From: Candidatus Aenigmatarchaeota archaeon
GTDB lineage: Archaea; Aenigmatarchaeota; Aenigmatarchaeia; GW2011-AR5
Direction of reading: 5' to 3'
NCBI GenBank assembly: GCA_016180925.1
Contig: JACPAH010000002.1
Coordinates: forward strand, 1-59,818
Length of the DNA stretch: 59,818 bases
In this document: in pieces, positions 4,538-58,620 of the stretch
Layout of the letters: every line of letters begins with the position of its first letter
Numbering within the stretch: position 1 is the first letter of the stretch
The notes under the pieces: model-generated
Told to the model about the DNA's origin: nothing
The model's database searches: none
What the model saw: the letters and a program-made list of their open reading frames with translations, nothing else
Position numbers and translations under genes: made by a program

Positions 4538-7500
4538 ATGCGTGCTGCATACGTAATTCTTGCAGTTGCAATACTTACATCTATTGCCGTTGCCCAGGAC
4601 AACGGAACGCAGCAACCCTATTGCCCGACAGCAAGCTGTGGTCAAAGCTCGCAGACGTGCGCCGACGGCTTCGTCGCGACATGCCAGCAGAGCTGCGACG
4701 AGGCTTCGCGTTCATGCCAGGCGTGCACGCCTTCATGCGCCGGCCATGAACAGGTTCAGGCATGTTCAACGACTTCGGACGGCGTCTGCCCGTCAGGATG
4801 CGCAGCTGGCTCTGACGCTGACTGCTGCACGAATGCCGGCAAGAAGTGGTATTCAGGATACGGATGTTATGACGCCAGCGCTCCTGCTCCAGCGACATGT
4901 TCTGTGACATCCGATGGCATATGCCCAGGAAACTGCGCAGCCGGTTCCGATTATGATTGCTGCACCAATTCAGGAAAATACTGGTATGACAATGGATGCT
5001 TCAGCACGCCAAAACAGACTTCAACTTCCACAGGCTCCTCATCGAATACATCAACTGCGACGACTTCGTGCCCCGCAGCGCCTTCGGCTCCTGCATGCGG
5101 AAAGGAGCAGTTTTTAGATACAAAATACGATTCGAACAGGTGTATAACAGGTTATGAATGCAAAGATTCTTCACGACCCCAGACCTCATGTCCTGCAGCC
5201 CCTTCACCCCCGGCATGCAATGGCTTCCTGGAAAACAGGTTTGACAACAACGGCTGCGTTGTCGGCTACGAATGCAGGACATCTACCAACGTAAACCAGC
5301 AATGCGTTCCAGGGACGATATCTGCCAGGGACGGGGCCGGAAACTGCCAGAATTTCCCCAATTCATGCCTGCCTCCGGGATGGAGCCGCGTTGACAGCTG
5401 CGACAGGTTCCAGGCGCCGTTCTGCGGCGACGGCAGGTGCGACATAGGCGAGAACCCGAATACATGCTCTTCCGACTGCAGCGGCAGCGTGCAGACGCGA
5501 ACGACACAGACATGCCCCGACGGCTCGCAGATACAGTGCAAGCAGGATGCCGACGGGCGCACGTTCTGCGACCAGTGCCCTGTCCAGAACCTGCCTCAGG
5601 GATGCCATCAGGAAAAAGATGACAAAGGCTTCGTGAGAGTCGTGTGCGAATCCAAGAGGACATGCCCAGAAATTTCGCAGGAAGTGAGGCTCAAATGCGT
5701 CGACCAGAAAGGCATTCCGGTCTTCAAGAAAGACCCTTCCGGGTGCGAACAATTCTCGTGTCAGTTTGGCAACGAAGTATCGAACCCGTTCAGCGGCTAC
5801 AACCAGTGCCCTCAGAAGGAGCAGATAGATGCTGAAATGAACAAGTGCGGTTCCCTCGGCCTGAGAGGCGCGATAGTGTTCGAAGGAGGATGCCAGATTG
5901 CGAGGTGCGTCGAGGAAAGGAGAGAGGAGCAGTGCCCGCATGTTTCATCGCAGGAAAAGGAAAAGATAAACAGCGAATGCCTGGCAAAGGGATTCCAGGG
6001 AATAAGAAACCGCTTCGAGGGATGCCGGGAAATCATAGAATGTGCTTCAAGCGACCAAGGCCAATATTCATGCCCAAGGGACGTGCCGCCTGAGGCTTAC
6101 CAGATGTGCGGCGAGAAGGGCGGCGAGCTTATAGTGCAGAGAAACCAGAATGGCTGCGTACAGTTCTCAAGGTGCGTAGCTCCCGGAGATGCGTCCAACG
6201 TTTATGTTGAAAGATCTTCAAGGATACTTGAAAGCTCCGAGCTTCTTTCCCTTGCGTTCAAGCTTGAGTCCCTCAATGTGGAGCTTGACAAGCTTGCAAA
6301 GCAGACCAATGACATAGCCGAATACTACAAATCAACGGGCTCTGCGGACGAAGGGAGATTCAGGCGCGTCTCGGACATGTTTGTTTCTGCAAAGGAAGAG
6401 TCTAGTGGAATAAAGGACAAGATACGAAGCAAAATTGACTCGCTCACTGAAGACGACATGCTCGAGATAAAACGCGACCTGAAATACCTCAAAGATGTGA
6501 TGATAAAGGACATACTCTACGTTATGCTCAGCAGCAATGAAGACGTTGAAGGCTTCTCAGCCACATCTGAAAAATCCGAAAATGACTGCGGCACAGACGG
6601 CGGGTGCTTTGATGAGGCGTTCAGGTTGTGCAAACCAATAACATTCGAGCCCGACAGAGAGGTCACGGTCAGTATAGCCGGTCTTGATGGCGACAACTGC
6701 ATACTGAAGGCAAGGATGAAGGAAGGGAAAGGGCCTCCAGCGGGCGTGATACAGGGAGTGAATCCGCCTTATGAAATGACATGCAAGATAAAGAATTACG
6801 CCCTTGGCATGAAAGGTCCTGAGGACATAATGCCTTTCTGTGAGGGCTCCATGGTCAAGCTCATGGAACAATTCGGGCCGAACGGCGAGAATGCACCGGG
6901 AGTTCCTGGCAAGTGCAGCGGCGATGAGTGCAGGGATTACTGCGGCAGAGGACAGACGGAAGCGAAGGAATGCCTCGAGAATCTCGGGCAATACCTGCCG
7001 CCTGAGGCGAAGCAGGGCCTTGAGATGCTTGCTTCGGGCAAAGGCGGTTTCGGACAGCAAAGGTTTGACCAGGGATTTGAAGGCCAGAGCTTCCAGCAGC
7101 AGGGCTACAGGCCGCAACAGACGATACGTCCAGAGCAGTGCGAATTTACGGACATGAGCGACGAAGAATGTGTTGACTACATACAAAAAAATCTCGGGCC
7201 CCCTTCAGAATGCAAGGGCCTCACGGACGCGCAGTGCAGGAAATTCCTGCTGAGGAAATGGGAAAACCAGAAGCAGCAGCCCGTCCAATCATATGGAGGG
7301 CCGCAGCAATTCCAGCAGAGAGGACAGCAATTTGACCAAGGCGGCTTCCAGGGACAGCAACAGTTTAAAGGACAACAGGATTTTAACCAGCCGGTTCAGC
7401 AATATGGCCAGCAGCAATTTGGAGGGCAGCAGGACTTCGGACAACAACAGTTTCCACAGCAGCAGTATGGGCATGGCGGATTCAACCAGCCTGTCCAGCA

Positions 7501-7657
7501 GTTTATTGAACAAGACTATGGAAGATATGAAGGCGGGGCCCAGGGACAGCAGCAGTATGGTGGTCAGCCTCAGCAGTATTATGGCGGCGCACAGCCGATC
7601 CAACAGACTGAGCCCACATCCCAGCAAACAGTGGCTTCAGGCGGCGGACAGGGGTAG
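4538..7657 (+). CDS. large secreted cysteine-rich protein with duplicated Cys modules, a central coiled-coil-like region and a Q-rich C-terminal tail
   Basis: signal peptide MRAAYVILAVAILTSIAVAQ; duplicated TSDG.CP..CAAGSD.DCCTN.GK.WY and SCPAAPS.PAC modules; tail of QQF/GQQ repeats. Confidence 0.8.
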   Translation: MRAAYVILAVAILTSIAVAQDNGTQQPYCPTASCGQSSQTCADGFVATCQQSCDEASRSCQACTPSCAGHEQVQACSTTSDGVCPSGCAAGSDADCCTNAGKKWYSGYGCYDASAPAPATCSVTSDGICPGNCAAGSDYDCCTNSGKYWYDNGCFSTPKQTSTSTGSSSNTSTATTSCPAAPSAPACGKEQFLDTKYDSNRCITGYECKDSSRPQTSCPAAPSPPACNGFLENRFDNNGCVVGYECRTSTNVNQQCVPGTISARDGAGNCQNFPNSCLPPGWSRVDSCDRFQAPFCGDGRCDIGENPNTCSSDCSGSVQTRTTQTCPDGSQIQCKQDADGRTFCDQCPVQNLPQGCHQEKDDKGFVRVVCESKRTCPEISQEVRLKCVDQKGIPVFKKDPSGCEQFSCQFGNEVSNPFSGYNQCPQKEQIDAEMNKCGSLGLRGAIVFEGGCQIARCVEERREEQCPHVSSQEKEKINSECLAKGFQGIRNRFEGCREIIECASSDQGQYSCPRDVPPEAYQMCGEKGGELIVQRNQNGCVQFSRCVAPGDASNVYVERSSRILESSELLSLAFKLESLNVELDKLAKQTNDIAEYYKSTGSADEGRFRRVSDMFVSAKEESSGIKDKIRSKIDSLTEDDMLEIKRDLKYLKDVMIKDILYVMLSSNEDVEGFSATSEKSENDCGTDGGCFDEAFRLCKPITFEPDREVTVSIAGLDGDNCILKARMKEGKGPPAGVIQGVNPPYEMTCKIKNYALGMKGPEDIMPFCEGSMVKLMEQFGPNGENAPGVPGKCSGDECRDYCGRGQTEAKECLENLGQYLPPEAKQGLEMLASGKGGFGQQRFDQGFEGQSFQQQGYRPQQTIRPEQCEFTDMSDEECVDYIQKNLGPPSECKGLTDAQCRKFLLRKWENQKQQPVQSYGGPQQFQQRGQQFDQGGFQGQQQFKGQQDFNQPVQQYGQQQFGGQQDFGQQQFPQQQYGHGGFNQPVQQFIEQDYGRYEGGAQGQQQYGGQPQQYYGGAQPIQQTEPTSQQTVASGGGQG

Positions 7658-7887: not shown

Positions 7888-8541
7888 ATGCAGAAAGACG
7901 AGCTTTTCAGGGAACTGCTCCTGCAGGGCGTCCGTGAAGGAGTAATAAACGCCATGAAGAAGGTGCCCAGGGAGGACTTCGTCCTGCCCGAGGACGCCGA
8001 CAAGGCATACTGCAACTACCCCCTTCTTCTCCATGAAGGCCAGACCATATCACAACCATTAACTGTCGCGCTGATGACAGAATGGCTGGACGTAAGAGCG
8101 GGCCACAAAGTGCTTGAGGTCGGCGCCGGAAGCGGCTACCAGGCTGCAATATTATCCGTCCTTGCCGGCCCGGAAGGCGGTGTCGTCACGTGCGAAGTCC
8201 GGAAAAGGCTTTACGAATTCGCAAGAAAGAATCTTGAAAGATACGGAAATGTCAAGGTAGTCCATGCGGACGGCTCGAAAGGCTATGTTGAGAGGAATTC
8301 TTTGACTTCCTCTAACATCTCAAAGGAACTCCGTTCCTTTGCAGATGACGGCAAGTTCGACAGGATAATTCTCACAGCCTCGGCAAAAAAGATGCCTGAA
8401 GCCCTCCTCGGCCACCTGAAGGAAGGCGGCATGGCCGTGCTGCCCGTAGGCGACGAGATGTATCTTGTGGAAAGACGCAACAAAAACAAATTCCTAAAGG
8501 AGATGAAAGGTTACTTCGCTTTCGTGCCGCTCGTGGAATAG
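7888..8541 (+). CDS. pcm: protein-L-isoaspartate O-methyltransferase, carrying a 19-codon repeat-derived insert
   Basis: GQTISQP, VLEVGAGSGYQAA, DRIILTA and VLPVG motifs of the Pcm family. Confidence 0.9.
   Translation: MQKDELFRELLLQGVREGVINAMKKVPREDFVLPEDADKAYCNYPLLLHEGQTISQPLTVALMTEWLDVRAGHKVLEVGAGSGYQAAILSVLAGPEGGVVTCEVRKRLYEFARKNLERYGNVKVVHADGSKGYVERNSLTSSNISKELRSFADDGKFDRIILTASAKKMPEALLGHLKEGGMAVLPVGDEMYLVERRNKNKFLKEMKGYFAFVPLVE
8290..8346. repeat. double-hairpin repeat unit inside pcm (AGAGGAA..TTCCTCT, AACATCT, CAAAGGAAC-tcc-GTTCCTTTG, CAGAT)
   Basis: same unit as the intergenic copies; exactly 57 nt, in frame. Confidence 0.7.
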
Positions 8542-8542
8542 G

Positions 8543-8794
8543 TCACTTATAGATATTCTTCCTGTGACCAATCTCTATGATCAATATCGTCATTATTTCG
8601 TTATTTATGTCTATAATAATCCTGTAATCCCCGACACGAAGCCTGAAATATTTATAACCAGAAAGCTTTTTCACAAAATCATACGGCCTTGTTTTGACCC
8701 TCTCCAAAACGACCAGTATGCGTTCTTGAACACTTCTATCGAGTTTTTTTAATTGGTCTTCTGATTTTGAGGTAAATTGTATCTTATACATCAT
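8543..8794 (-). CDS. RelE/ParE-family type II toxin
   Basis: F.A..QLKKLD...RI...L...P......KL.G....YRLRVGDYRII..I pattern; 4-nt overlap with the upstream small gene. Confidence 0.8.
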   Translation of the reverse strand: MMYKIQFTSKSEDQLKKLDRSVQERILVVLERVKTRPYDFVKKLSGYKYFRLRVGDYRIIIDINNEIMTILIIEIGHRKNIYK

Positions 8795-9009
8795 AAGCCG
8801 AGTTCCTTCTTTATTTGTTCAAGGGATTTTGTTTTACCTTCTTTGGCCTGTTTTTCTGAATCTAGTATGTTTCTTTTTGTCTCTTCGGAAAGCTCCATAG
8901 AATCCTCTATCAAGTCCCATATCACCTCTTCATAGCTTTCGTTTTCGTATAGCTTTCTTTTCTTCAGGCTCTGCTGAAGATTTTCACTTATTTGTATAGA
9001 CGTTACCAT
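8791..9009 (-). CDS. putative antitoxin of the RelE-family toxin
   Basis: small acidic protein overlapping the toxin start; paralogous to 24334..24510 (..SYEEVIWDLI.. versus ..TYDDIIRNMM..). Confidence 0.6.
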   Translation of the reverse strand: MVTSIQISENLQQSLKKRKLYENESYEEVIWDLIEDSMELSEETKRNILDSEKQAKEGKTKSLEQIKKELGL

Positions 9010-9034
9010 AGTATTCTATAGATAGCTATAGTAT

Positions 9035-9439
9035 TTAAAGCCGACGCCTGAAGAACCTGACTTCGTTCCCGTATATTGACGGCACGCTTCCCAAATCATG
9101 TTCATAGACGTGGCCGAAGCCCCACTTCAGCCTCACTCTCCCGTCGCCGACATAAATCCCGACATTCTGCCCGGTCGCCATGTTCACATATATCACTACA
9201 TCGCCTTCCTCGGGCTCGGCGGCCTCTTCATGCCCTTCAAGCCCTTTCACCGGTCCGTACCTTTCCCAGAATTCCGCTTCAAAGAAGTACCTGTCGCCGA
9301 AAAAGCAGTTTCTCGCGTCCGCCTCCACATCCCTTTTTTCATACAGCATAACGCCCGGCAAATCCCCTATCCTGTCGAATTCTCCGCCGTGAAACAGCCT
9401 GTCTATATCCCTTCGGGTGGGAGTGGATGGGATTTGCAT
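9035..9439 (-). CDS. hypothetical protein; GDVVIY...VGIYVGDG resembles the C-terminal part of NlpC/P60-type domains
   Basis: ORF 9035..9484; start moved to the ATG at 9439, which lies 22 nt from the palindromic TATA box at 9461-9468. Confidence 0.5.
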   Translation of the reverse strand: MQIPSTPTRRDIDRLFHGGEFDRIGDLPGVMLYEKRDVEADARNCFFGDRYFFEAEFWERYGPVKGLEGHEEAAEPEEGDVVIYVNMATGQNVGIYVGDGRVRLKWGFGHVYEHDLGSVPSIYGNEVRFFRRRL

Positions 9440-9460
9440 GGATAAATGAGAGCGCCAACT

Positions 9461-9468
9461 TTTATAAA
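9461..9468. promoter_or_regulatory. palindromic TATA box TTTATAAA shared by divergent genes
   Basis: equidistant (22 nt) from the ATG at 9439 (-) and the ATG at 9490 (+). Confidence 0.45.
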
Positions 9469-9489
9469 CTGTTCTATGATTCATTAGAT

Positions 9490-15460: not shown

Positions 15461-15496
15461 GAATATAACAATGGATTTCAGGTTTTAATAATTATA

Positions 15497-15640
15497 GTGA
15501 AACCAGAAAAGAATCCGAACATGAATTCTGGTTTCACATATCTGCAGAAAGCATAGCTTTCTGACATCTCAAAAGACTCTGTCTTTTGCAGATAGTGCAC
15601 AAGGAAAATAATATCTTATTTCTTTCCTTGTAGCACTATA
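15497..15640. repeat. composite hairpin repeat, copy B: GTGAAACCAGAA..TTCTGGTTTCAC, CAGAAAGC-ata-GCTTTCTG, ACATCT, CAAAAGAC-tct-GTCTTTTG, CAGAT, GTGCACAAGGAAA..TTTCCTTGTAGCAC
   Basis: near-identical by eye to 58268-58415 over about 145 nt; differences inside the stems are largely compensated. Confidence 0.75.
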
Positions 15641-16536: not shown

Positions 16537-17718
16537 TCATTTCCTTAACCATAAAAGGCTTTCCCTCAATGTGCCCACCTTCTCGCTCCTGTTCTCCAGC
16601 GCGAACCTCTTGTTGAGCACGATTATCTTTTCCAGGGAAAACCCGAGCTGCTCCGCCATATACGCAAGGACGACGTCGCTGTCCACGACTCCACTCACGT
16701 CTGTGGAGAACGTGCGTTCTCCAAGATCTCCGGGAAGCCTCCGGCTACCCGGCAGATAGCCGTTGCCGACGACAAGCGCGACATTGGCGCCGGGGACGCA
16801 GACGCGATACAGTTCGCCAAGGACCTTTTCCATGTCCTTGAAATACGATACCGCGGCTTGGGGCAGCCCCAGGAACCCATCCTCCGATATCCTTGAGCCG
16901 ATATAAGAGCGCATTGGAGGCAGTCCCTTCGGGCGTATGAAGAACTCCTCTATCGCATAAACTTTCGTGTAGTCTATGTTGTTCAGGTAGGGGGGAGATG
17001 TTATGATGGAACCCACACTTTCGTCCTCCAGCTCGAGCCTCCTTGCGTCGCACAGTGCGACGCCAGTCCTGCAGTCCCTGAAGCTGAGCCTCTTCACGTC
17101 CTTCGCCATCTTCTTCACGACGTTCCTGAACATTATCCTCAGCGGGGCCGCCTGGCGCTTCCTTATCTTCAGCGAGCCGCCGTCTTTCCTGGCATAGCTG
17201 CACCTGATGGAGGCGTTTATCAGGGCGAGGATGAAGAAGTCCCTGTACTTCTCGTCTTCTATTTTCATTATGTCCCTCATGAGAAATGCGATGTCCTCGA
17301 GGGCGAATTTGCTGAAAGCCCGCTTCATAAGCGGCGGATATTCGGAAGGCAGCTTTTCGAACTTCCTCCTGAACCCGGAATATATCTCCCTTACCGTTGC
17401 CGTGTCGTAGTCCTTCGCCTTGACCGAGGACGCAAAAATCGAGACAGGCAGCACGTCAAGGCCCACGGAGTCTATCCCAAGCTCCCTGCATGCAAGGAGA
17501 GTCGTGCCGGAACCACAGAACGGGTCAAGGACAGGCAGCGAGACGTCATGCTGAAACATGTCCAGTATCTTGAGCACGAGTTCCCTCGAGAAGCCTTCCT
17601 TGTAGTAGAACCAGTTGTATACCGGCGTCTTCTTGTTGGGCACGAACGTCGCAAGCTCCGCCCATTCCAGCTTTTCCTCTATCTTTCCTATAATACTATG
17701 CGCATATTCCTTGAACAT
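16537..17718 (-). CDS. SAM-dependent N6-adenine/N4-cytosine-type methyltransferase (DNA methylase-like), no adjacent endonuclease recognised
   Basis: DPFCGSGTT (motif I) near the N-terminus and TSPPY (motif IV) about 175 aa later. Confidence 0.7.
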   Translation of the reverse strand: MFKEYAHSIIGKIEEKLEWAELATFVPNKKTPVYNWFYYKEGFSRELVLKILDMFQHDVSLPVLDPFCGSGTTLLACRELGIDSVGLDVLPVSIFASSVKAKDYDTATVREIYSGFRRKFEKLPSEYPPLMKRAFSKFALEDIAFLMRDIMKIEDEKYRDFFILALINASIRCSYARKDGGSLKIRKRQAAPLRIMFRNVVKKMAKDVKRLSFRDCRTGVALCDARRLELEDESVGSIITSPPYLNNIDYTKVYAIEEFFIRPKGLPPMRSYIGSRISEDGFLGLPQAAVSYFKDMEKVLGELYRVCVPGANVALVVGNGYLPGSRRLPGDLGERTFSTDVSGVVDSDVVLAYMAEQLGFSLEKIIVLNKRFALENRSEKVGTLRESLLWLRK

Positions 17719-18038: not shown

Positions 18039-18458
18039 ATGGATGGTTCTCTGAAGAGTTCTCATGCTAGGAAAAATTTCTTACTTATTGGGTTGCTCTT
18101 TGCATTCGTCTTCGCGATGGCGGCGCCTTCGCAGGCAGCTTTGATGAATATCACGGTGGTGCAGGAAATAAGAAACCTCAGTTATTATACCATAAGCGAC
18201 CCGGTAAACGCTTCCAATATCACATTTGTCCAGCCTGAACTCAAGATAAATGTCACGGGCAACATAACCACCGTCTATAATTTCACGCTCACCGTTGATG
18301 GTGTCGAGGGACAATCATACAACATCACGAACAACACTGCTGTATATGTTAATATTTCAACCAGGCTTGCCAACGGGACGCACACCGTCTGTCATAAACG
18401 TGAGCGCCGGCACCGGAGCAACCACGAACGCCACCAATACAACGGACACCACGCCTGA
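18039..18458 (+). CDS. N-terminal fragment (signal peptide plus first repeat) of the large surface glycoprotein, in a different frame from the main body
   Basis: signal peptide LLIGLLFAFVFAMAAPSQA; NxS/T-rich repeat like the downstream repeats up to ..ANGTHTV, then nonsense (CHKRERRHR..). Confidence 0.6.
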   Translation: MDGSLKSSHARKNFLLIGLLFAFVFAMAAPSQAALMNITVVQEIRNLSYYTISDPVNASNITFVQPELKINVTGNITTVYNFTLTVDGVEGQSYNITNNTAVYVNISTRLANGTHTVCHKRERRHRSNHERHQYNGHHA

Positions 18459-21219
18459 AATACTGTTCAACCTGACTGACAATGCTGAAACGGACCAGAT
18501 AAACGTCAGCGTATACGTGGGATTCACAGGAGGAACCCTAAGCTATGACGGCAGCAAATTAATCACTAACAATACTATCGGCAGGTTCAATCTCTCGGCA
18601 AGGGCAAATGGCACTTTCCTAGTGAGATTTGAGGCAAATGATTCAGCGCGCAACCTTGCAAACGCCTCCCTGCTTACTATAACTGTCGACGACACAGCGC
18701 CGGTTTTTCAGGCGTTCACAGGCTCCGGCGGCACAGGAGCCACCCTCAATGCCACCAACACGACGGATACGACGCCTGAAGTACTTTTCAACCTCACCGA
18801 CAACGCCGAGACTGACCAGATAAATGTCAGTGTCTATATTGGCGGCACTTATGACAACTCATTTCTCTTCACTAATAACACGATAGGAAGATACAACCTG
18901 TCGGCAAGGGCAAACGGCACTTTCAGCGTTCGATTCGAGGCAAATGATTCCGCAGGAAACCTCGCCAATGCCTCCCTGTTCACAATATATGTTGACGACA
19001 CGAAGCCTTCATTCCAGTCGTTTAACTCGACTACTGGAACTACCAACAATGCCACAAACTTCACTGACACGACACCTGAAATAATAGTTAATTTCACTGA
19101 CGCCGGCGGCAGCTTCACCTTGATAAATGTTAGCCTCTATATCGGCAGCACGTTTGACCATACAGAGCTTCTCGCAAACAACACCCTTGCGAGAATAAAC
19201 GTGACTTCAGCAAGGGCTAACGGGACATTTATCTTAAGGCTGGAATCCAATGATTCTGCGGGCAATTTAGCAAACGCTTCACTGCTCACGATAACAGTTG
19301 ACGACACCAAGCCTGTATTCCAGCCGTTCAATCCTGGCAACAGCACCTCTACGAATGCCACAAATACCACGGATACAACCCCCGAGATAGCAGTCAACCT
19401 GACAGATAACGGCTTCACCACGATAAACGTCAGCGTTTATATTGACAGCACGTTCATGCAGACGTTCCTGTTCACGAATAACACGATAAACAGGGTCAAC
19501 CTTACAGCTAGGGCAAACGGCACGTTCTGGATAAGGTTTGAAGCCAATGACTCTTCAGCGAATCTTGCCAATGCAAGCCTCCTGACAATAACTGTCGACG
19601 ACACGAAGCCCGCATTCAATACATTCGACGCGTCAAATGGCGCCACTGACAATGCCACAAATACCACGGACACGACGCCGGAAATTCTGGTCAACCTGAC
19701 AGACAACGGATTTACCTCGATAAACATCAGCGCTTACATAGACGGCACATTTACCCAGACTTACCTGATAACGAACAACACTATCACGCGCATAAATCTC
19801 TCAATGGCTGGAAACAACACACCTGCAAACGGCACCCATATCGTGCGCTTCGAGGCAAATGACTCCTCCGGGAACCTGGCAAACGCGTCGCTGTTCACGA
19901 TAACCACCGATGCCGAGGCGCCTTACATAACGATATCCTCGCCTGTGAACAACACCAACACGACGGACCTCACCCCGGCATTCCAGTTCACGCTCATTGA
20001 CAATTCGTCTGCGTTCCTCAACGTGCTGAACTGGACGATATGGGTGGACGGCGCAGTCAACGGCCAGACGGGTCTTGCGGCCAACAACACACTGGTTAAC
20101 GTTTCGCTCAATGTGCTTTCAAATGTCACGCATAATATTACTATACAGGTCGGCGACTTCCTCAACAACACGAGAAACCTCACAAGATGGCATGTTTCAA
20201 CAGATGCCGTTGCACCTGTCCTCACGATATCACATTCGCCTACAACTATCTATCAGGGCAATGTGGTCACGGTCTCATGCACCATAGCCGAGAACCTGCT
20301 TACAGTTGCATCCAAGTTGACTGTAACGAAGCCGAACAGCCAGGTCACGACTCTCTCTGGCTGCGGTGCTGAATTCGGCGACACGACTGCCGTCGGCACA
20401 TATACAATCACGCTCACAGCAAATGACACAGCGGGCAATGGCGCCACGTCAACCAAGACATTTGCCGTAAGCGACTCCGGCGGCTCTTCCTCCAGCAGCA
20501 GCGGGGGCGGCGGAAGCAGCAGCGCAGCGGCGTCCACGCCAAGCACGACAGCCTCGAAGACCCTGATAGTCGATTCATTCGTTCCTGACAAGCCGAACGT
20601 GGTCAAGCTTACGAGCGAGAACATAGGCTTCAAGGAAATAAGCGTTGACATCACAAACAAGGTCAATGCCGTCGAGATAAAGGTGGTGAAGACGGACTCA
20701 GCGCCTGCTGAAGTGACAAAGGCTGTTGAAGGCAAAGTCTACCAGTACATAGAAATAAAGCACGACAAGCTGAAGGATGATAATATAAAGAGTGCAAAAG
20801 TCAAGTTCACTGTTACAAACAAATGGGCAACTGACAACGGCGTTGCAAAGGAAAATGTAGTCCTGAAGAGGTTCAAGGAAGGCTCGTGGACGGACATGAA
20901 AACAACGCTTTCAAGCGAAAGCTCAACAGAGACAACTTACGAGGCCGAGCTTCCAGGTCTTTCGGTGTTCGCAATAGGCGAAGCCGTGCCGACTGCCGCA
21001 GCCCAGCAGCCTGCCGAACAGCCTTCACAACAAACTGGACAGCAGCCTGCGCAACAACCTGCAACGCCTTCAGCTCCGGAGCAGCCTTCGGCGCAACAAC
21101 CAACTGCGGCATATTCAAATGAAACGATGTACTACGTTGCCGGCGGCGTCATACTGGTCCTTATAATCGCTTACTTCTGGGTGAAAGCCAGGAAGATAGG
21201 CAAGACTAAGAAGAAATAA
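18295..21219 (+). CDS. large sequon-rich surface glycoprotein (S-layer-like): about 6-7 tandem repeats of about 100 aa, Ser/Gly linker, PGF-pre-PGF-like domain, Q/P-rich stalk, C-terminal TM anchor
   Basis: repeats TNATNTTDTTPE...ARANGTF.VRFEANDS.GNLANASL.TITVDDTKP; ..YEAELPGLSVFAIG; final hydrophobic helix plus KARKIGKTKKK. The true 5' end is probably supplied by 18039..about 18390. Confidence 0.8.
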   Translation: MMVSRDNHTTSRTTLLYMLIFQPGLPTGRTPSVINVSAGTGATTNATNTTDTTPEILFNLTDNAETDQINVSVYVGFTGGTLSYDGSKLITNNTIGRFNLSARANGTFLVRFEANDSARNLANASLLTITVDDTAPVFQAFTGSGGTGATLNATNTTDTTPEVLFNLTDNAETDQINVSVYIGGTYDNSFLFTNNTIGRYNLSARANGTFSVRFEANDSAGNLANASLFTIYVDDTKPSFQSFNSTTGTTNNATNFTDTTPEIIVNFTDAGGSFTLINVSLYIGSTFDHTELLANNTLARINVTSARANGTFILRLESNDSAGNLANASLLTITVDDTKPVFQPFNPGNSTSTNATNTTDTTPEIAVNLTDNGFTTINVSVYIDSTFMQTFLFTNNTINRVNLTARANGTFWIRFEANDSSANLANASLLTITVDDTKPAFNTFDASNGATDNATNTTDTTPEILVNLTDNGFTSINISAYIDGTFTQTYLITNNTITRINLSMAGNNTPANGTHIVRFEANDSSGNLANASLFTITTDAEAPYITISSPVNNTNTTDLTPAFQFTLIDNSSAFLNVLNWTIWVDGAVNGQTGLAANNTLVNVSLNVLSNVTHNITIQVGDFLNNTRNLTRWHVSTDAVAPVLTISHSPTTIYQGNVVTVSCTIAENLLTVASKLTVTKPNSQVTTLSGCGAEFGDTTAVGTYTITLTANDTAGNGATSTKTFAVSDSGGSSSSSSGGGGSSSAAASTPSTTASKTLIVDSFVPDKPNVVKLTSENIGFKEISVDITNKVNAVEIKVVKTDSAPAEVTKAVEGKVYQYIEIKHDKLKDDNIKSAKVKFTVTNKWATDNGVAKENVVLKRFKEGSWTDMKTTLSSESSTETTYEAELPGLSVFAIGEAVPTAAAQQPAEQPSQQTGQQPAQQPATPSAPEQPSAQQPTAAYSNETMYYVAGGVILVLIIAYFWVKARKIGKTKKK

Positions 21220-21281: not shown

Positions 21282-21369
21282 GGGCTGGTAGATCAACTGG
21301 AAGATCGCTTGCATGGCATATCTTGCGAGCCAAGGCAAGAGGCTACGGGTTCGAGTCCCGTCCAGTCCA
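21282..21369 (+). tRNA. tRNA-Ala(GGC) with an intron of about 15 nt (21319-21333) in the anticodon loop
   Basis: manual cloverleaf: acceptor GGGCTGG/CCAGTCC with G3:U70, D arm GATC-AACTGGAA-GATC, anticodon stem CTTGC/GCAAG enclosing 22 nt, variable AGGCT, T arm ACGGG-TTCGAGT-CCCGT, discriminator A; CCA not encoded. Confidence 0.8.
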
Positions 21370-21370
21370 T

Positions 21371-21420
21371 AAGCCCCTTTTCTTTTCAAAAAAGAAAAGG
21401 CCCTTGGGTTCAAAAGAAAA
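21371..21420 (+). repeat. trailer module AAGCCCC-[11-bp hairpin]-GGCCCTTGGGTTCAA.., homologous to the 5' part of the tRNA-Cys intron (58491-58540)
   Basis: by-eye alignment; hairpin arms CCTTTTCTTTT/AAAAGAAAAGG here versus CCTTCTTTCTT/AAGAAAGAAGG there, changed on both arms. Confidence 0.6.
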
Positions 21421-21453
21421 TAATATATTTTAAGAGAAGAGGAGGTTGATAAG

Positions 21454-21563
21454 TCTGCAACGGAATAAGATTCCGTTGAGATGCTAATGGCATTGAAGAA
21501 TGCCATTCAGCAGATGAGAACTCTGCAAAGAATTCTCTCAGAATTCTTTGAGATCTCAGAGAG
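21454..21563. repeat. array of three family hairpins (CAACGGAAT-aag-ATTCCGTTG; AATGGCATT-gaag-AATGCCATT; CAAAGAATTCT-ctc-AGAATTCTTTG) with TCTGCA / AGATGC / CAGCAGAT / AGATCTC linkers
   Basis: inverted repeats read directly. Confidence 0.6.
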
Positions 21564-21576
21564 CCGTGGGTTCTGT

Positions 21577-22137
21577 TCAAATCCCCCCGTGTCCACTTTT
21601 CATCTTCTTGATTATCATATCGACGATTTGCTCCGGCTCCTTGTCCGACGTGTCCACCACGATATCGGCCTCGTTCTCCTGCGAGAAAGTGTCGAAGCCG
21701 TATATATGGAGGAAGCTCTGCCTCTCTATCCTGTCCCTCTCCTTCACGGCTCTCAGTGCGTCCTTTTCAGGCATGCCGTCCCTGCCGGAGATGCGCCTGG
21801 CCCTGACCTCGTCCGGCGCCTTGAGCCATACAGATACGCTGTACAAGCCCGAAAGAAGGCGTATGGAAAGCTTGCCGTCTATGACTATATTCCCGGCTCT
21901 TGCAAGCTCTTTCTGAAGGTCGTCGATGTTGACGTGAAAATCCCTCCTGGAGCCCTTCTTTGTAAGGAGGAACTCAGTTGCCCGCCTTGTTTCACCCTCA
22001 TTTACGCCGCTCTCAATGGCTTTTTGCTTGAAGAAATCCCCGGCCGAGAAATGCTTCAGCCCCAGACGCTTTGCCAGAAGCTTGGCGACGGTCGACGAGC
22101 CCGCTCCCGGCATTCCGGAAACGACTATGACTGTCAT
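21577..22137 (-). CDS. cmk: archaeal-type cytidylate (CMP) kinase
   Basis: P-loop SGMPGAGSSTVAKLLAKRLGLKHFSAGDFF and overall layout of archaeal Cmk; adenylate-kinase-like alternatives not excluded. Confidence 0.75.
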   Translation of the reverse strand: MTVIVVSGMPGAGSSTVAKLLAKRLGLKHFSAGDFFKQKAIESGVNEGETRRATEFLLTKKGSRRDFHVNIDDLQKELARAGNIVIDGKLSIRLLSGLYSVSVWLKAPDEVRARRISGRDGMPEKDALRAVKERDRIERQSFLHIYGFDTFSQENEADIVVDTSDKEPEQIVDMIIKKMKSGHGGI

Positions 22138-22187
22138 AGAAGTGTATTGCTAGTCAAATAGATAAATATGACGTATTTGGCAGCAAT

Positions 22188-22245
22188 GTACAAAAGACAA
22201 AGCCTTTTGACATGCCAAAGAACTTTCAGTTCTTTGCGCATATGC
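22188..22245. repeat. double hairpin unit (CAAAAG-acaaagc-CTTTTG, ACATGC, CAAAGAAC-tttca-GTTCTTTG, CGCAT)
   Basis: inverted repeats read directly. Confidence 0.55.
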
Positions 22246-22337
22246 TAACCAACGTATTAATGTCTTGAATATTAAGTTGGTTAACTATTTTGCAGGAACA
22301 ATGTTAAATACCCTTCGCCACCTATTCTGTTATGGCA

Positions 22338-22446
22338 ATCTGCAAATGTGCGAAAACCGAAGGATTTCGACATCCCAAAGGAATTCTATTCCTTTGCGGA
22401 AAGCTTCGCTCTTTGAGATCTCAAAGGAGGGACCTCCTTTGAAGAT
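22338..22446. repeat. array of four family hairpins (ATCTGCA.., CGAAAACC-gaa-GGATTTCG, ACATCC, CAAAGGAAT-tct-ATTCCTTTG, .., GAGATCT, CAAAGGAG-ggac-CTCCTTTG, AAGAT)
   Basis: read directly; 22369-22400 is nearly identical to 24983-25014. Confidence 0.6.
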
Positions 22447-22480
22447 ACGGAAACGCCGAAAAAAGAAGAATTATCCCCGG

Positions 22481-23311: not shown

Positions 23312-23416
23312 TTCTTTATATTGTCTGCAATGGCATTATGAATAAATGGCGCTGAGATGATAAAGATGGCGGCAAATGCTATCTTTAATCATTTTGCCGA
23401 ATCTAATAGAAACATG

Positions 23417-23553
23417 GGCAGGTAGCTTAGCCTGGTAGAGCACCTGACTGATATCGCAGAAAGCGCAGCTTTCTGGGAGCTTGGAAAGAAGGAAACACTG
23501 AAGTTCTTTCCCAATCATCAGGAGGTCGAGAGTTCAAATCTCTTCCTGCCCAT
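23417..23553 (+). tRNA. tRNA-Ile(GAU) with a 63-nt anticodon-loop intron (23455-23517)
   Basis: manual cloverleaf: acceptor GGGCAGG/CCTGCCC, D arm GCTT-AGCCTGGTA-GAGC, anticodon stem CCTGA/TCAGG, loop CTGATA+A, variable AGGTC, T arm GAGAG-TTCAAAT-CTCTT, discriminator A. Confidence 0.85.
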
Positions 23554-24774: not shown

Positions 24775-25024
24775 AAACCGGACTTCGACTTCAAATTCAG
24801 ATTTAAATAGCTTATCACCGAATTAAAGTAAGCTCTCACGTACTCGGAAAGGCATAGTTTTGTCTTTCGCCGCGTTCTACGTACAGGCAATTGACGCCTC
24901 CGGCGCCGGTCTGGTTGGGCGAGGGCCAGTCCTCAGAGAGAACTGGTTCGCTGACAAAGGAATTTCATATTTACTCAAATAACATCCCAAAGGAATAGAA
25001 TTCCTTTGCGGAGAGGAATGGAGA
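24775..25024 (+). promoter_or_regulatory. non-coding leader of about 250 nt upstream of rpl3, with a GC-rich structured core and a terminal family hairpin (24983-25014)
   Basis: no credible ORF; CGCCGCGT..ACGCCTCCGGCG, palindrome CCGGCGCCGG, CCAGT..ACTGG, then ACATCC-CAAAGGAAT-aga-ATTCCTTTG-CGGAGAGG just before the ATG. Confidence 0.4.
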
Positions 25025-27850: not shown

Positions 27851-27915
27851 TCATTTCAATTGCTCAAAGACCGAAGGTCTTTGGCATCTCAAAAGGGCAA
27901 AGCTCTTTTGCAGAT
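27851..27915. repeat. family double hairpin in the L2-S19 spacer (TCATTTCAATTGCT, CAAAGACC-gaa-GGTCTTTG, GCATCT, CAAAAGGGC-aaa-GCTCTTTTG, CAGAT)
   Basis: read directly; homologous flank-to-flank with 29047-29111. Confidence 0.7.
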
Positions 27916-27947
27916 TCAAAAACAGAAATCTGTGTGGTGTCTTAGAA

Positions 27948-29046: not shown

Positions 29047-29111
29047 TCCATTTCATTGCCCAGAGAACTCCTGTTCTCTGGCATCTCAAAAGAGACACCT
29101 CTTTTGCAGAT
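29047..29111. repeat. family double hairpin in the L22-S3 spacer (TCCATTTCATTGC, CCAGAGAAC-tcct-GTTCTCTGG, CATCT, CAAAAGAG-acac-CTCTTTTG, CAGAT)
   Basis: read directly; homologous to 27851-27915. Confidence 0.7.
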
Positions 29112-29143
29112 TTCGAAACGAAAGACTCGAAGGTGTTTCAAAA

Positions 29144-34747: not shown

Positions 34748-35230
34748 ATGAGCAAAAGATTCAAGTCGCAGGATTATTTCAGGTATCCTCGCCTCGGCAT
34801 CAAATGGAGAAGGCCGAAAGGCCTCCAGAGCAAGCTCCGGCTGAAGATAGGCGGCGCCGGAAAGCTCGTTGCTGTAGGATACGGCACCAGCAGAGAGAGG
34901 AGGAATACGATAAACGGCGTCAGGTATGCCGTGGTTTCAAATGCGGAGCAGCTCGGACAGACCGATTCCAGGACCGTCATAATATCATCCGCGACCGGCT
35001 CAAAGAAGGCCCTTGAGATATCCGAGAAGGCTGCGGGCCTCGGGATAAAGATACTCAACATGAAAAAAGTCAGGAAGTCGCGCGCCATACTGAAGAAGCT
35101 CCGGGACAAAAAGACGGCGCCTTCAAAGGACGCGGGGAAAAAGGAGGACGCCAAAAAGAAAGAAGAGGCCCTCCCAGAAGAAGAAAAGCCGCGCGAGAAG
35201 ACAAAAGCGCCTGCGGAGGCAAAGAAATAA
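34748..35230 (+). CDS. rpl32e: 50S ribosomal protein L32e (eL32) with a Lys/Glu-rich C-terminal tail
   Basis: ..F..QD..RY.RLG.KWRRP.G.QSK.R... motif; start moved to MSKRFKSQ. Confidence 0.88.
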   Translation: MSKRFKSQDYFRYPRLGIKWRRPKGLQSKLRLKIGGAGKLVAVGYGTSRERRNTINGVRYAVVSNAEQLGQTDSRTVIISSATGSKKALEISEKAAGLGIKILNMKKVRKSRAILKKLRDKKTAPSKDAGKKEDAKKKEEALPEEEKPREKTKAPAEAKK

Positions 35231-41208: not shown

Positions 41209-41916
41209 TCAGAATAGCCTGACCACAATGAACGCAAAAAGCAGCATGCTTGCGAAGTCGGCGAGCGACGTCGTTATCGGCACGAGGAAGTTGTTCGGGT
41301 CCTCCTTCTTCCTGTATATGTAGATGCCGGCCGCGAGCGATGCCAGGAATATTATTCCAACGAGTATCATGGTGCACAAAACCGAGACAGCCATGACCTT
41401 CAGGAACACTGACGGGTCGAACGGGAAGCCGCCGTAATATGCCATGCCATATGATACCGCCCCGATGTACAGCGACGTTATCAGGGCGACGGCAAGAAGC
41501 GTCGCCATAAGCTTCCTAAGCCCAGGAGATTTCATCACGCCTGCCCTGATGCTTATCTTCCCTGTATAGAGCATGGCAGTGAACTTCGACGAGACTATGG
41601 TGCCGTAATCCCCTATCATGTCGTTCAGTGCCGGGAGCATTATCAGCAGCGGAATTATGGTGACGAGCTTTTCCTTCACGTTCTCAAGGCCCACGCCGCC
41701 TACCGAGCTTATGATGGCCGCTATTATAAGGATTTTCATGCTTTCCTTCATGATGACGGAAGCGATATGTGACCTCGTCCCGTATTCCTTCATGTAGAAG
41801 AGCGTCATGTAGGATATCCTGTGTTTCTTGTGCATTGAATGGATGACAGGGTGGTGCTTATGGCGCTTTATGCCGTGCAGCTTCGCGAATTTCTTGTCAA
41901 TCTTCAAAGGAGGCAC
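41209..41916 (-). CDS. MgtE-type divalent-cation transporter membrane domain protein
   Basis: ..IIPLLIMLPALNDMIGDYGTIVSSKF.. and five TM helices; the GTG start lies inside a repeat hairpin, so the true start may be further downstream. Confidence 0.7.
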   Translation of the reverse strand: MPPLKIDKKFAKLHGIKRHKHHPVIHSMHKKHRISYMTLFYMKEYGTRSHIASVIMKESMKILIIAAIISSVGGVGLENVKEKLVTIIPLLIMLPALNDMIGDYGTIVSSKFTAMLYTGKISIRAGVMKSPGLRKLMATLLAVALITSLYIGAVSYGMAYYGGFPFDPSVFLKVMAVSVLCTMILVGIIFLASLAAGIYIYRKKEDPNNFLVPITTSLADFASMLLFAFIVVRLF

Positions 41917-41954
41917 CTCCTTTGATATCTCAAAAAACTTCGTTCTTTGCAGAG
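41903..41954. repeat. family double hairpin between the two MgtE-domain genes (CAAAGGAG-gcac-CTCCTTTG, ATATCT, CAAAAAAC-ttc-GTTCTTTG, CAGAG)
   Basis: read directly; reads as the same consensus on either strand. Confidence 0.65.
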
Positions 41955-41956
41955 CT

Positions 41957-42487
41957 TCATGCGACCACCACTATTGCTATCATGAACGACACGACGCTCA
42001 TGACGTCTCCCAGGGTAGTTATATAGGGCCCCATGATGTTGTTCGGGTCGTGCCCTTTCCTGAACACCCAGAACGTCGTATACACTGTCAACGGCGCCAT
42101 GAGTATCGAAACCATGCCTGCGATGACTGAAATGAAAATTATCTTCATATTTTCAATCCCGAAGAACCAGCTGCTGGCGAGATAGGCGAAGATGCCCAGT
42201 ATGACGCTTGATATCATTATAAGGGAAGCCGTGGCCAGCATGTTGCTCTTGGCCGTCCTGTCGTTCATCTTCGGCCTGACGACACCAAGGAAAAGGCCTG
42301 AGCTGAGGCGTGCCGCCATGGAGCCGCCAAGGCTGCCGCGCATCTCGAGGAAGCCCGGTATAAGTATGAACAGGCCTGGTATGAGATATATCTGGTTTGT
42401 CATGGAAGCGAGAACCACGCCGGCGAGCAGCCCGCCCGACACCGATATGAGCTCCACGGCGAGGATTTCCCTGAAGTCATTTCCCAT
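41957..42487 (-). CDS. MgtE-type divalent-cation transporter membrane domain protein
   Basis: ..LIPGFLEMRGSLGGSMAARLSSGL..; start moved to MGNDFREIL because the ORF's 5' extension runs into the tRNA-Gly gene. Confidence 0.75.
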   Translation of the reverse strand: MGNDFREILAVELISVSGGLLAGVVLASMTNQIYLIPGLFILIPGFLEMRGSLGGSMAARLSSGLFLGVVRPKMNDRTAKSNMLATASLIMISSVILGIFAYLASSWFFGIENMKIIFISVIAGMVSILMAPLTVYTTFWVFRKGHDPNNIMGPYITTLGDVMSVVSFMIAIVVVA

Positions 42488-42553: not shown

Positions 42554-42684
42554 GCGCCTGTAGTCTAATGGTAGCTTGACGCTAAAGACGTCGTGCCAGT
42601 AAAGGACCACAGCCTTCCAAGCTGTTGACTGTAGCTAATAATTTGGCTCAGGCAGAAATCCGGGTTCGAATCCCGGCGGGCGCA
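42554..42684 (+). tRNA. tRNA-Gly(UCC) interrupted at three positions (about 42574-42585 D loop/stem, 42591-42608 at position 26/27, about 42626-42654 variable region)
   Basis: manual fold: acceptor GCGCCTG/CGGGCGC, GTCT-AATGGTA-[12 nt]-AGAC, G, [18 nt], ACAGC-CTTCCAA-GCTGT, [about 29 nt], GAAAT, CCGGG-TTCGAAT-CCCGG, discriminator A; TATA-like TTTTTATAAGC 24-34 nt upstream. Confidence 0.55.
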
Positions 42685-58253: not shown

Positions 58254-58267
58254 TTTCGCGATTTATA

Positions 58268-58415
58268 GTGAAGCCAGAAAAGAATCCGGACATGAATTCC
58301 GGTTTCACATATGCTCAAAAGCGAAGCTTTTGGCATCTCAAAAGACTCTGTCTTTTGCAGATAGTGCACAAGGAAAATAAATATATTGTTTCTTTCTTTG
58401 CATGACTATAAATGT
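58268..58415. repeat. composite hairpin repeat, copy C; its 3' part carries the TATA-like ACTATAAATG (58405-58414) about 25 nt upstream of tRNA-Cys
   Basis: near-identical by eye to 15497-15640. Confidence 0.75.
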
Positions 58416-58437: not shown

Positions 58438-58620
58438 GCTGGCGTGACAGAACGGCCATCTGCAAAGACCGTAGATGTGACCGCCTGCAGAAGCCCCTTC
58501 TTTCTTCAAAAGAAAGAAGGCCCTTGGGTTCAAGAAAGAATAAGCAAAATTATTATGAATATTCTTGAATCCTGCAGAAGCAGCAAGCGGTATAACCCGG
58601 TTCAACTCCGGGCGCCAGCT
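58438..58620 (+). tRNA. tRNA-Cys(GCA) with a 15-nt D-arm insertion (58461-58475) and a 95-nt anticodon-loop intron (58491-58585)
   Basis: manual fold after removing both: acceptor GCTGGCG/CGCCAGC, TG, D stem ACAG/CTGT, loop AACGGCCAT, G26, anticodon stem ACCGC/GCGGT, loop CTGCAG+A, variable ATAA, T arm CCCGG-TTCAACT-CCGGG, discriminator U (Cys identity). Confidence 0.7.

Follow-up and report, generated by a model that had tools for sequence, protein, structure and literature searches.

A double-hairpin repeat lying in frame in the pcm gene of an Aenigmatarchaeota archaeon is probably a translated copy of a mobile, MITE-like element

Rickettsia palindromic elements (RPEs) are short, dispersed, hairpin-forming repeats, mostly intergenic, which are also found repeatedly in frame and free of stop codons in conserved genes, at positions compatible with the protein fold, and which are present or absent between orthologues (PMC10969869). 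Here we describe a family of double-hairpin repeats in a 59,818-nt stretch of DNA of Candidatus Aenigmatarchaeota archaeon (contig JACPAH010000002.1, assembly GCA_016180925.1; the whole stretch is hereafter called the window). The family behaves in a similar way: within 60 kb two of its copies lie in frame in coding genes, namely pcm, the gene of protein-L-isoaspartate O-methyltransferase, and a DNA methylase gene, and are lacking in orthologues. [quoted passage not shown] RPEs differ from this family in being about 100-150 bp long and bacterial and in encoding a conserved peptide specific to each family, whereas the units described here are archaeal, 50-61 nt long and without any bias towards coding sequence or towards lengths divisible by three (3n); they consist of two hairpins whose inner stems co-vary, while the CAAAG/CTTTG hairpin bases, the GCATCT linker and the CAGAT tail are fixed.

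Prokaryotic MITEs are alike in being small, non-coding, multi-copy and mostly intergenic, in having short terminal inverted symmetry (here ATCTGCAAAG...CTTTGCAGAT) and in occurring in unrelated contexts as copies that are nearly identical; in archaea an intragenic location is reported for about 11% of MITEs, and some of the highest MITE densities are those of DPANN genomes (PMC11602168). Unlike typical MITEs, the present family stands at the bottom of the size range, shows no clear target-site duplication and no partner transposase within the window, and comprises several sub-variants, each conserved across species. Repetitive extragenic palindromic sequences (REPs) and bacterial interspersed mosaic elements (BIMEs), which are mobilised by REP-associated tyrosine transposases (RAYTs, Y1 transposases of the IS200/IS605-like type), and the haloarchaeal, IS200/IS605-derived palindrome-associated transposable elements (PATEs) share with it imperfect palindromes of 20-40 nt, often paired and situated in operon spacers, as well as hairpin recognition rather than long inverted repeats. 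Insertion of the REP/BIME/PATE type, which proceeds without target duplication, would fit this family. However, REPs are extragenic by definition, whereas our family has two coding copies and one more inside a 23S rRNA insertion of a related genome (L088), and no RAYT or TnpA was matched by Pfam in the 60-kb window.

Archaeal introns of the bulge-helix-bulge type, known from tRNA, rRNA and cbf5 mRNA, are likewise small structured inserts in conserved genes. The motif at their junctions consists of two 3-nt bulges separated by a 4-bp helix. Hairpins like those of the family are found both in a tRNA intron and in an insertion of a 23S rRNA gene; the cbf5 intron is patchy among orthologues (PMC2738675), as the pcm insert is. 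In contrast to these introns, no such motif was found at the pcm junctions by a strict scan (which also missed its controls), the insert keeps the reading frame, and copies of the family are mostly intergenic and lie in either orientation.

The host gene, the insert and its two hairpins are located as follows.
7888-8541, + strand: pcm (protein-L-isoaspartate O-methyltransferase, 217 aa), host of the insert; open reading frame (ORF) list, Pfam PF01135 (E = 1.7e-46), Pcm homologues in the Protein Data Bank (PDB; E down to 3e-33) and an AlphaFold model.
8287-8346, + strand: insertion of 60 nt (20 codons), residues 134-153, VERNSLTSSNISKELRSFAD; protein and DNA alignments with relatives L002 and L003 (empty) and L001 (filled), and a covariance-model match at 8283-8350 (55.5 bits).
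8286-8317, + strand: hairpin 1, with outer stem TGTT/AACA, bulged G8290, inner stem AGAGGAA (8291-8297)/TTCCTCT (8307-8313) and a 9-nt loop; sequence, hairpin scan and RNAfold.
8317-8346, + strand: hairpin 2, with outer stem ATCT/AGAT, bulged C8342, inner stem CAAAGGAAC (8321-8329)/GTTCCTTTG (8333-8341) and loop TCC; sequence, hairpin scan, RNAfold, family consensus and covariation.

The initial annotation of this locus had described, at 8290-8346, a double-hairpin unit of exactly 19 codons (57 nt), in frame, without stop codons and of the same kind as four intergenic copies. The sequence given there was borne out by direct reading, and the unit does start at the first codon position (8290 - 7888 = 402) and encodes ERNSLTSSNISKELRSFAD without a stop; its extent, on the other hand, had to be corrected, as the indel relative to the nearest orthologues measures 20 codons, or 60 nt. 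The kinship with the intergenic copies holds as well: the covariance model, built from an alignment of 13 repeat copies, assigns 55.5 bits (E = 1.2e-13) to the pcm copy and 52-65 bits to the four copies named. The hairpin 2 region includes the conserved linker, here ACATCT, and the CAGAT tail. ATG is present at both junctions (8285-8287 and 8345-8347), which leaves a latitude of up to 3 nt in placing the ends of the insert. In the pcm copy only two frames out of six are free of stop codons, one of them being the frame used by the gene. No match to hairpin 2 with its tail is expected by chance (100 shuffles of the window), and the folding energy of the 64-nt stretch is -25.1 kcal/mol (RNAfold; z = -6.5 relative to shuffles). 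Hairpins arising by chance or dictated by the codons are thus ruled out by the shuffles, by the E-values of the model and by the covariation described below.

That the segment is additional to the known spacing of Pcm enzymes, as the initial annotation had proposed, is evident from two comparisons. In the alignments with solved Pcm structures (2yxe, 4l7v, 4o29) a gap of 18-21 residues falls exactly at the insert, and the alignment resumes on both sides of it. Of the 120 best Pcm homologues, 118 lack the insert. Both motifs, EVGxG and FDRI, were identifiable in 114 of the 120, and with two exceptions the distance from one to the other is 57-65 residues; in the two exceptions it is 80, and they are P0001, a strain variant of the window protein, and P0004, which corresponds to L001 (NCBI JACPJX010000031). 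A search with the duplicated insert peptide returned no matches, the window's own protein being likewise missed by it. Outside the insert, the nucleotide identity of pcm to the window gene is 87% for L003, 80% for L002 and 68% for L001, which groups the genes as ((window, L003), L002), L001. In the nearest orthologues, L003 and L002, the site is empty and clean (GGCTACAACGGC; ...AAAGGCTACAACGGC...; protein GSKGY-NGKF).

The more distant L001 carries the insert at the same codon as the window gene. Over all positions the two copies are identical at 57 of 60 nucleotides inside the insert versus 402 of 591 outside (P = 3.6e-7), and at third codon positions at 19 of 20 inside versus 47.7% outside (P = 8.6e-6); third-position identity between the window and L003 genes is 75%. 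All 12 loop nucleotides are the same. The three differences are one bulge base and one compensatory replacement of A-T by G-C in the pair closing hairpin 1, and the sole amino-acid difference, E to R, is non-conservative. Judging from these identities, the common ancestor of the two inserts is more recent than the host genes and, it seems, also more recent than the split between the window and L003 lineages. A tract of gene conversion or homologous recombination is not supported, since the identity has already dropped to 75-80% less than 40 nt from either junction, and positions -5 and +6 are mismatched; an assembly chimera is ruled out, because the L001 copy has three differences of its own and its own flanks up to the junction. 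Independent assemblies of two Logan runs, SRR12113431 and SRR12113390, also contain the pcm allele of the window, which likewise speaks against a chimera. As family variants are generally conserved across species, the near-identity of the two inserts should be regarded as a property of the repeat family, and the odd part is the shared site.

The Pcm fold is predicted to be intact in spite of the insert. The AlphaFold2 model of the window protein, based on 16 homologues, has a mean pLDDT of 88.7 and a pTM of 0.88 and superimposes on solved Pcm structures with TM-scores of 0.84-0.88. The insert is the only internal stretch modelled with low confidence: the 10-residue blocks spanning residues 131-150 have mean pLDDT values of 51 and 59, versus more than 88 in the rest of the model, and form an excursion between strand 4 (residues 122-125) and strand 5 (156-162).

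Besides pcm, one more gene of the window contains a copy of the family.
16699-16761, + strand, antisense to the gene: second coding copy, in the DNA methyltransferase gene at 16537-17718 (- strand; PF01555); covariance model 28 bits, E = 6.6e-6, outside the training set.
This copy forms a 19-residue in-frame insertion within ...GNGYLPGSRRLPGDLGERTFSTDVSG..., and the segment is absent from 17 homologues. In the relative L127 the copy has undergone a 9-nt in-frame deletion and substitutions which destroy both hairpins and leave the reading frame intact; this older coding copy, which decays in frame, argues for a translated, weakly constrained sequence and not for an element that needs to be recognized and excised. 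Both coding copies of the 60 kb are of 3n length and stop-free, whereas the family as a whole shows no such bias.

In total, the covariance model recognizes about 15 copies of the double-hairpin family in the window, some of them outside the training set. Those beyond the two coding genes are listed here, with flanking ORFs assigned by Pfam where indicated.
15540-15597, + strand: intergenic copy between the genes of a class-I aminoacyl-tRNA synthetase and a metallo-beta-lactamase-fold protein; 64.6 bits; part of a duplicated module of about 150 nt (repeat families D14/D16, blastn).
58309-58366, + strand: intergenic copy downstream of a Na/Ca exchanger gene; 53.4 bits.
27860-27919, + strand: copy in the L2-S19 spacer of the ribosomal-protein operon; 57.5 bits; Pfam.
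29056-29115, + strand: copy in the L22-S3 spacer; 52.1 bits; Pfam.
24967-25017, + strand: partial or degenerate copy directly upstream of the start codon of L3 (25025); 33.2 bits, outside the training set; Pfam.
22186-22450, + strand: three units (22186-22245, 22346-22405 and 22396-22450, the last two in tandem) between a cytidylate-kinase-like gene and an NAD kinase gene; 62.5, 59.3 and 29.1 bits; Pfam.
21453-21586, + strand: two units (21453-21519 and 21517-21586) between a tRNA gene and the 3' end of the cytidylate-kinase-like gene; 30.7 and 36.3 bits.
41896-41958, strand ambiguous, both scoring alike: copy between two MgtE-like genes; 47.2 (-) and 46.8 (+) bits; Pfam.
1-177, no strand assigned: two units at the window edge (1-58 and 115-177); 41.9 and 57.2 bits.
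A weak model match in the ribosomal protein gene L15 (37735-37808) was not counted as an insertion, the PDB alignment differing there by only about 5 residues, and a weak match in L32e (34983-35048) was also left out of the copy count.

The family consensus reads (A/T)TGC-T-CAAAGnnn-loop-nnnCTTTG-GCATCT-CAAAGnnn-loop-nnnCTTTG-CAGAT. Covariation was assessed with 33 copies, drawn from the window and from related genomes: standard pairs occupy 92.6% of the pair cells versus 74% in column shuffles (none of the 500 shuffles reaches the observed value) and 34-49% in slid controls, and all 23 stem pairs vary on both sides, the replacement of the outer TGC/GCA pair by TGT/ACA being among these changes. 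G-U pairs are rare (18 of 742 cells), and in the 13-copy alignment non-Watson-Crick cells of the G-U type (about 10) and of the A-C/C-A type (about 9) are about equally frequent, so that no RNA strand is singled out. Ten of the 33 units have a length divisible by three, and about 60% of the six frames are open. At the gathering threshold no Rfam family covers the repeat copies, the Rfam matches of the window being three tRNAs only, and literature searches found no description of the repeat; we therefore regard the double-hairpin family as previously uncatalogued.

Several observations concern the surroundings of these copies. The module of about 150 nt, duplicated at 15492-15640 and 58261-58410 (94-96% identical), is made up of a 12-bp hairpin (GTGAAACCAGAA...TTCTGGTTTCAC) followed by the double hairpin and then by AGTGCACAAGGAAAATAA; its copies on two contigs of the JACPJX metagenome-assembled genome (MAG; L024 and L028) are about 77% identical, and the module may represent a small RNA gene or a composite element of larger size. 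Several ORFs of the window are wrongly extended across repeat copies; among them are those called mechanically for S3 (29018) and NAD kinase (22265), which are extended upstream. A separate hairpin repeat outside the double-hairpin family, CCCCTTTTCTTTTCAAAAAAGAAAAGG...GGGTTCAAAAGAAAATAA, is found at 21368-21423 and 58488-58543 (82% identical), one copy being placed directly after the tRNA-Ala gene.

By the names of its Pcm homologues, the window belongs to the Aenigmarchaeota/Aenigmatarchaeota. As for the distribution of the family, GTDB was scanned for a half-pattern of 18 specified bases, each species being represented by one genome; this yielded scattered singletons in bacteria, as chance predicts, and multiple matches in Aenigmatarchaeota assemblies. 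With scores of 36-62 bits, the covariance model recognized dozens of further copies in at least nine assemblies named Aenigmatarchaeota or 'uncultured archaeon', and others in about 22 contigs of JGI metagenomes, whereas 16 viral, bacterial and other archaeal control loci matching the half-pattern reached at most 28.6 bits with the full model; in view of these low scores, the matches of the half-pattern in viral contigs and in genomes other than those of Aenigmatarchaeota are considered to be due to chance. Exact matches to hairpin 2 of the pcm insert were sought in JGI metagenomes, and none was found. One sub-variant, TTCTTGCT-CAGAAAGC...GCTTTCTG-GCATCT-CAAAGAGC...GCTCTTTG-CAGAT, is 94-97% identical between different assemblies, and flanks of 1.5 kb on either side of these copies have no blastn or tblastx similarity. 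The ribosomal-operon spacers occupied are also different: before L3, L2-S19 and L22-S3 in the window, L19e-L18 (three copies) at locus L051, and L32e-L19e at locus L130; a conserved regulatory leader of the ribosomal operon is ruled out by these differences. Near-identical copies in unrelated contexts, the varying spacers of the ribosomal operon and the existence of both filled and empty pcm sites show the family to be mobile and MITE-like.

The 23S rRNA gene of the related MAG L088 (275-6038, - strand, JACPJW010000001) spans 5.76 kb, the model being 2,987 nt long; one insertion, of about 924 nt, is located near position 755 of the model, and another, of 220 nt, near position 2050. The latter holds a family copy (2367-2425), antisense to the rRNA and belonging to the same 94-97%-identical sub-variant; a further copy is located in the 23S 3' trailer (158-216). 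At locus L079 of the JACPJX MAG (4873-4932, - strand) an HD-domain (AF1432-like) gene is directly adjoined at its 5' end by a family copy, which lies in the frame that it has in pcm (junction ...DISKNFQFFADFI|HELGMLKRV), the 3' end of this copy encoding the start of a conserved N-terminal helix, and the element may supply the start codon and first residues of the HD-domain protein.

Three intron-bearing tRNA genes were found in the window with Rfam, and none by ARAGORN. That at 23416-23552 encodes tRNA-Ile(GAU) and has a two-hairpin intron of about 63 nt, the first stem of which, CAGAAAGC/GCTTTCTG, is the stem of the 15545 copy; the gene at 42554-42684 has two insertions of about 31 nt at non-canonical positions (in the D-loop and before the T-arm), and the one at 21282-21369 encodes tRNA-Ala with an intron of about 15 nt. 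None of the three introns fits the strict bulge-helix-bulge template. A general link between the family and tRNA introns was discarded, as only the tRNA-Ile intron is family-like (15 bits), and the long-intron tRNAs of L023 and L082 belong to a different isoacceptor and have unrelated introns.

Of the two possibilities raised by the initial annotation, a repeat insertion tolerated as a surface loop or a segment removed at the RNA level, the former is supported by the repeat family, the empty sites of the nearest orthologues, the kept frame and the modelled excursion. The element would have entered pcm as DNA between the codon of Tyr133 and the following Asp/Asn codon, in the short connection of strand 4 to strand 5 of the methyltransferase fold. 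The reading frame of pcm would have stayed open because the copy is 3n long and has a sense frame without stops, and the insert would be translated as a 20-residue, probably flexible, surface excursion tolerated by the enzyme. The hairpins would play no part in the expression of pcm and should still be intact there because the insertion is young. As to the L001 copy, it most likely represents a second acquisition at the same site, owing either to target preference together with a strong survivorship filter or to lateral transfer. We infer the translation of the insert, its neutrality or near-neutrality and the mode of transposition.

Several points weigh against this explanation. The same insert at the same codon in Pcm proteins only 68% identical is unexpected for random insertion of a MITE. 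The two pcm copies differ by a compensatory change, A-T to G-C, which hints that the hairpin may still be under selection, and the co-orientation of most window copies with the neighbouring genes could point to a role at the RNA level. No transposase, RAYT or TnpA is present among the 58 window ORFs scanned with Pfam, a search confined to these 60 kb. The AT/ATG at the pcm junctions also belongs to the ends of the family consensus, which leaves no clean target-site duplication, and the termini ATCTGCAAAG and CTTTGCAGAT are inverted but coincide with the hairpin bases, so that no clean terminal structure is seen either. Finally, a single intergenic paralogue of the pcm sub-variant was found (L046), which is similar to it but not identical.

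The shared site could be accounted for most simply by one event, that is, by a single old insertion that predates the divergence of the window, L003, L002 and L001 lineages, was held almost unchanged by selection at the nucleotide level, was lost precisely in the L002 and L003 lineages and is still translated in the others. The same site and orientation in two lineages favour this explanation, and so do the compensatory pair and the 94-97% conservation of family variants between species, which implies that the sequence is either constrained or refreshed; the ATG direct repeats at 8285-8287 and 8345-8347 would permit a precise 60-nt slippage deletion across the hairpin-forming segment. Nevertheless, we consider it unlikely. 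It needs three events instead of two, no change would have occurred at the 12 loop nucleotides or at 19 of the 20 third positions while third-position identity in the rest of the gene fell to 48% (75% even relative to L003), the flanks diverge right to the junctions, and the coding copy in the methylase gene decays at a normal rate. Another conceivable explanation is a recruited host function, the hairpin serving as a protein-binding or RNA-processing/stability signal, such as intergenic copies may furnish between cistrons, or the 20-residue loop as a new interaction surface. The placement of copies shortly before start codons in operon spacers (before L3, L2-S19, L22-S3), the conservation of sub-variants between species and the intact state of the pcm copy in two lineages would agree with this. 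However, the occupied spacers differ between related genomes, copies lie in both orientations and even antisense inside an rRNA insertion, the closest relatives do without the insert, its sole amino-acid difference is the non-conservative E to R, and the loop is predicted at low confidence; all this makes a recruited function highly improbable.

According to the other reading of the initial annotation, the double hairpin would be cut from the pcm transcript by the splicing endonuclease, or by another RNase together with a ligase, restoring a canonical 197-residue Pcm, and the family would be an intron-like mobile element. Archaeal mRNA splicing at bulge-helix-bulge motifs is known for cbf5 (PMC2738675). 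The hairpin of the tRNA-Ile intron shares its stem with the 15545 copy and scores 15.1 bits (E = 0.03) with the family model, a family copy lies within the 220-nt 23S rRNA insertion of L088, RNAfold closes the two pcm hairpins with a weak exon-exon helix, and the co-orientation of most window copies would be in line with processing. Removal at the RNA level nonetheless found no support. The strict scan placed no bulge-helix-bulge motif excising 57 or 60 nt, a negative of little weight since the scan also missed the tRNA introns of the window and the rRNA insertion. Excision would not require both coding copies to be 3n long and stop-free, for which the prior is about 0.2 per copy; the methylase copy is antisense to its gene and in L127 decays by an in-frame deletion that breaks the hairpins; the L088 copy is antisense to the rRNA; and the rarity of G-U pairs, together with the equal frequency of the two mismatch types, gives no sign of a selected RNA strand. 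We therefore hold such excision to be very improbable. Scarcely better are the prospects of a broader version, in which the family is an intron-like, site-specific mobile element excised from pcm mRNA, from the tRNA-Ile precursor and from the 23S insertion and re-entering a preferred site in a homing-like manner; this would explain a 95%-identical insert at the same codon of 68%-identical Pcm proteins while closer relatives are empty and, if true, would mean an intron of a protein-coding gene in DPANN archaea with a new recognition structure.

The gene neighbourhood also varies among these genomes. Between pcm and a TatD gene the window has a three-gene cassette (8543-9484, - strand) of a ParE-family toxin (8543-8794), a putative antitoxin (8791-9009) and a 149-aa ORF, which is present in L002 and L003 and absent from L001. 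The pcm genes of the window and L001 are 68-71% identical in nucleotides, and the neighbouring genes 77-85%. Upstream of pcm, at 4538-7657 (+ strand), a Cys-rich, probably secreted protein of 1,039 aa with a Q/G-rich C-terminal tail has no Pfam match, and 18295-21219 (+ strand) encodes another probably secreted protein, of 974 aa, with five or six tandem Ig-like repeats of about 100 aa (DNA period 297-321 nt).

With a translated mobile insertion as the probable explanation of the pcm copy, the notion of selfish palindromic DNA in protein genes, best known from Rickettsia, would be extended to DPANN archaea. The family resides in operon spacers, in a 23S rRNA insertion and in at least two coding genes of very small genomes and, being spread over such sites, should be a source of variation in protein length and of errors in gene calling. 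That two diverged lineages carry nearly the same insert at one and the same codon might bring to light transposition into a specific target, a lateral exchange among populations that occur together or, with the least likelihood, excision at the RNA level.

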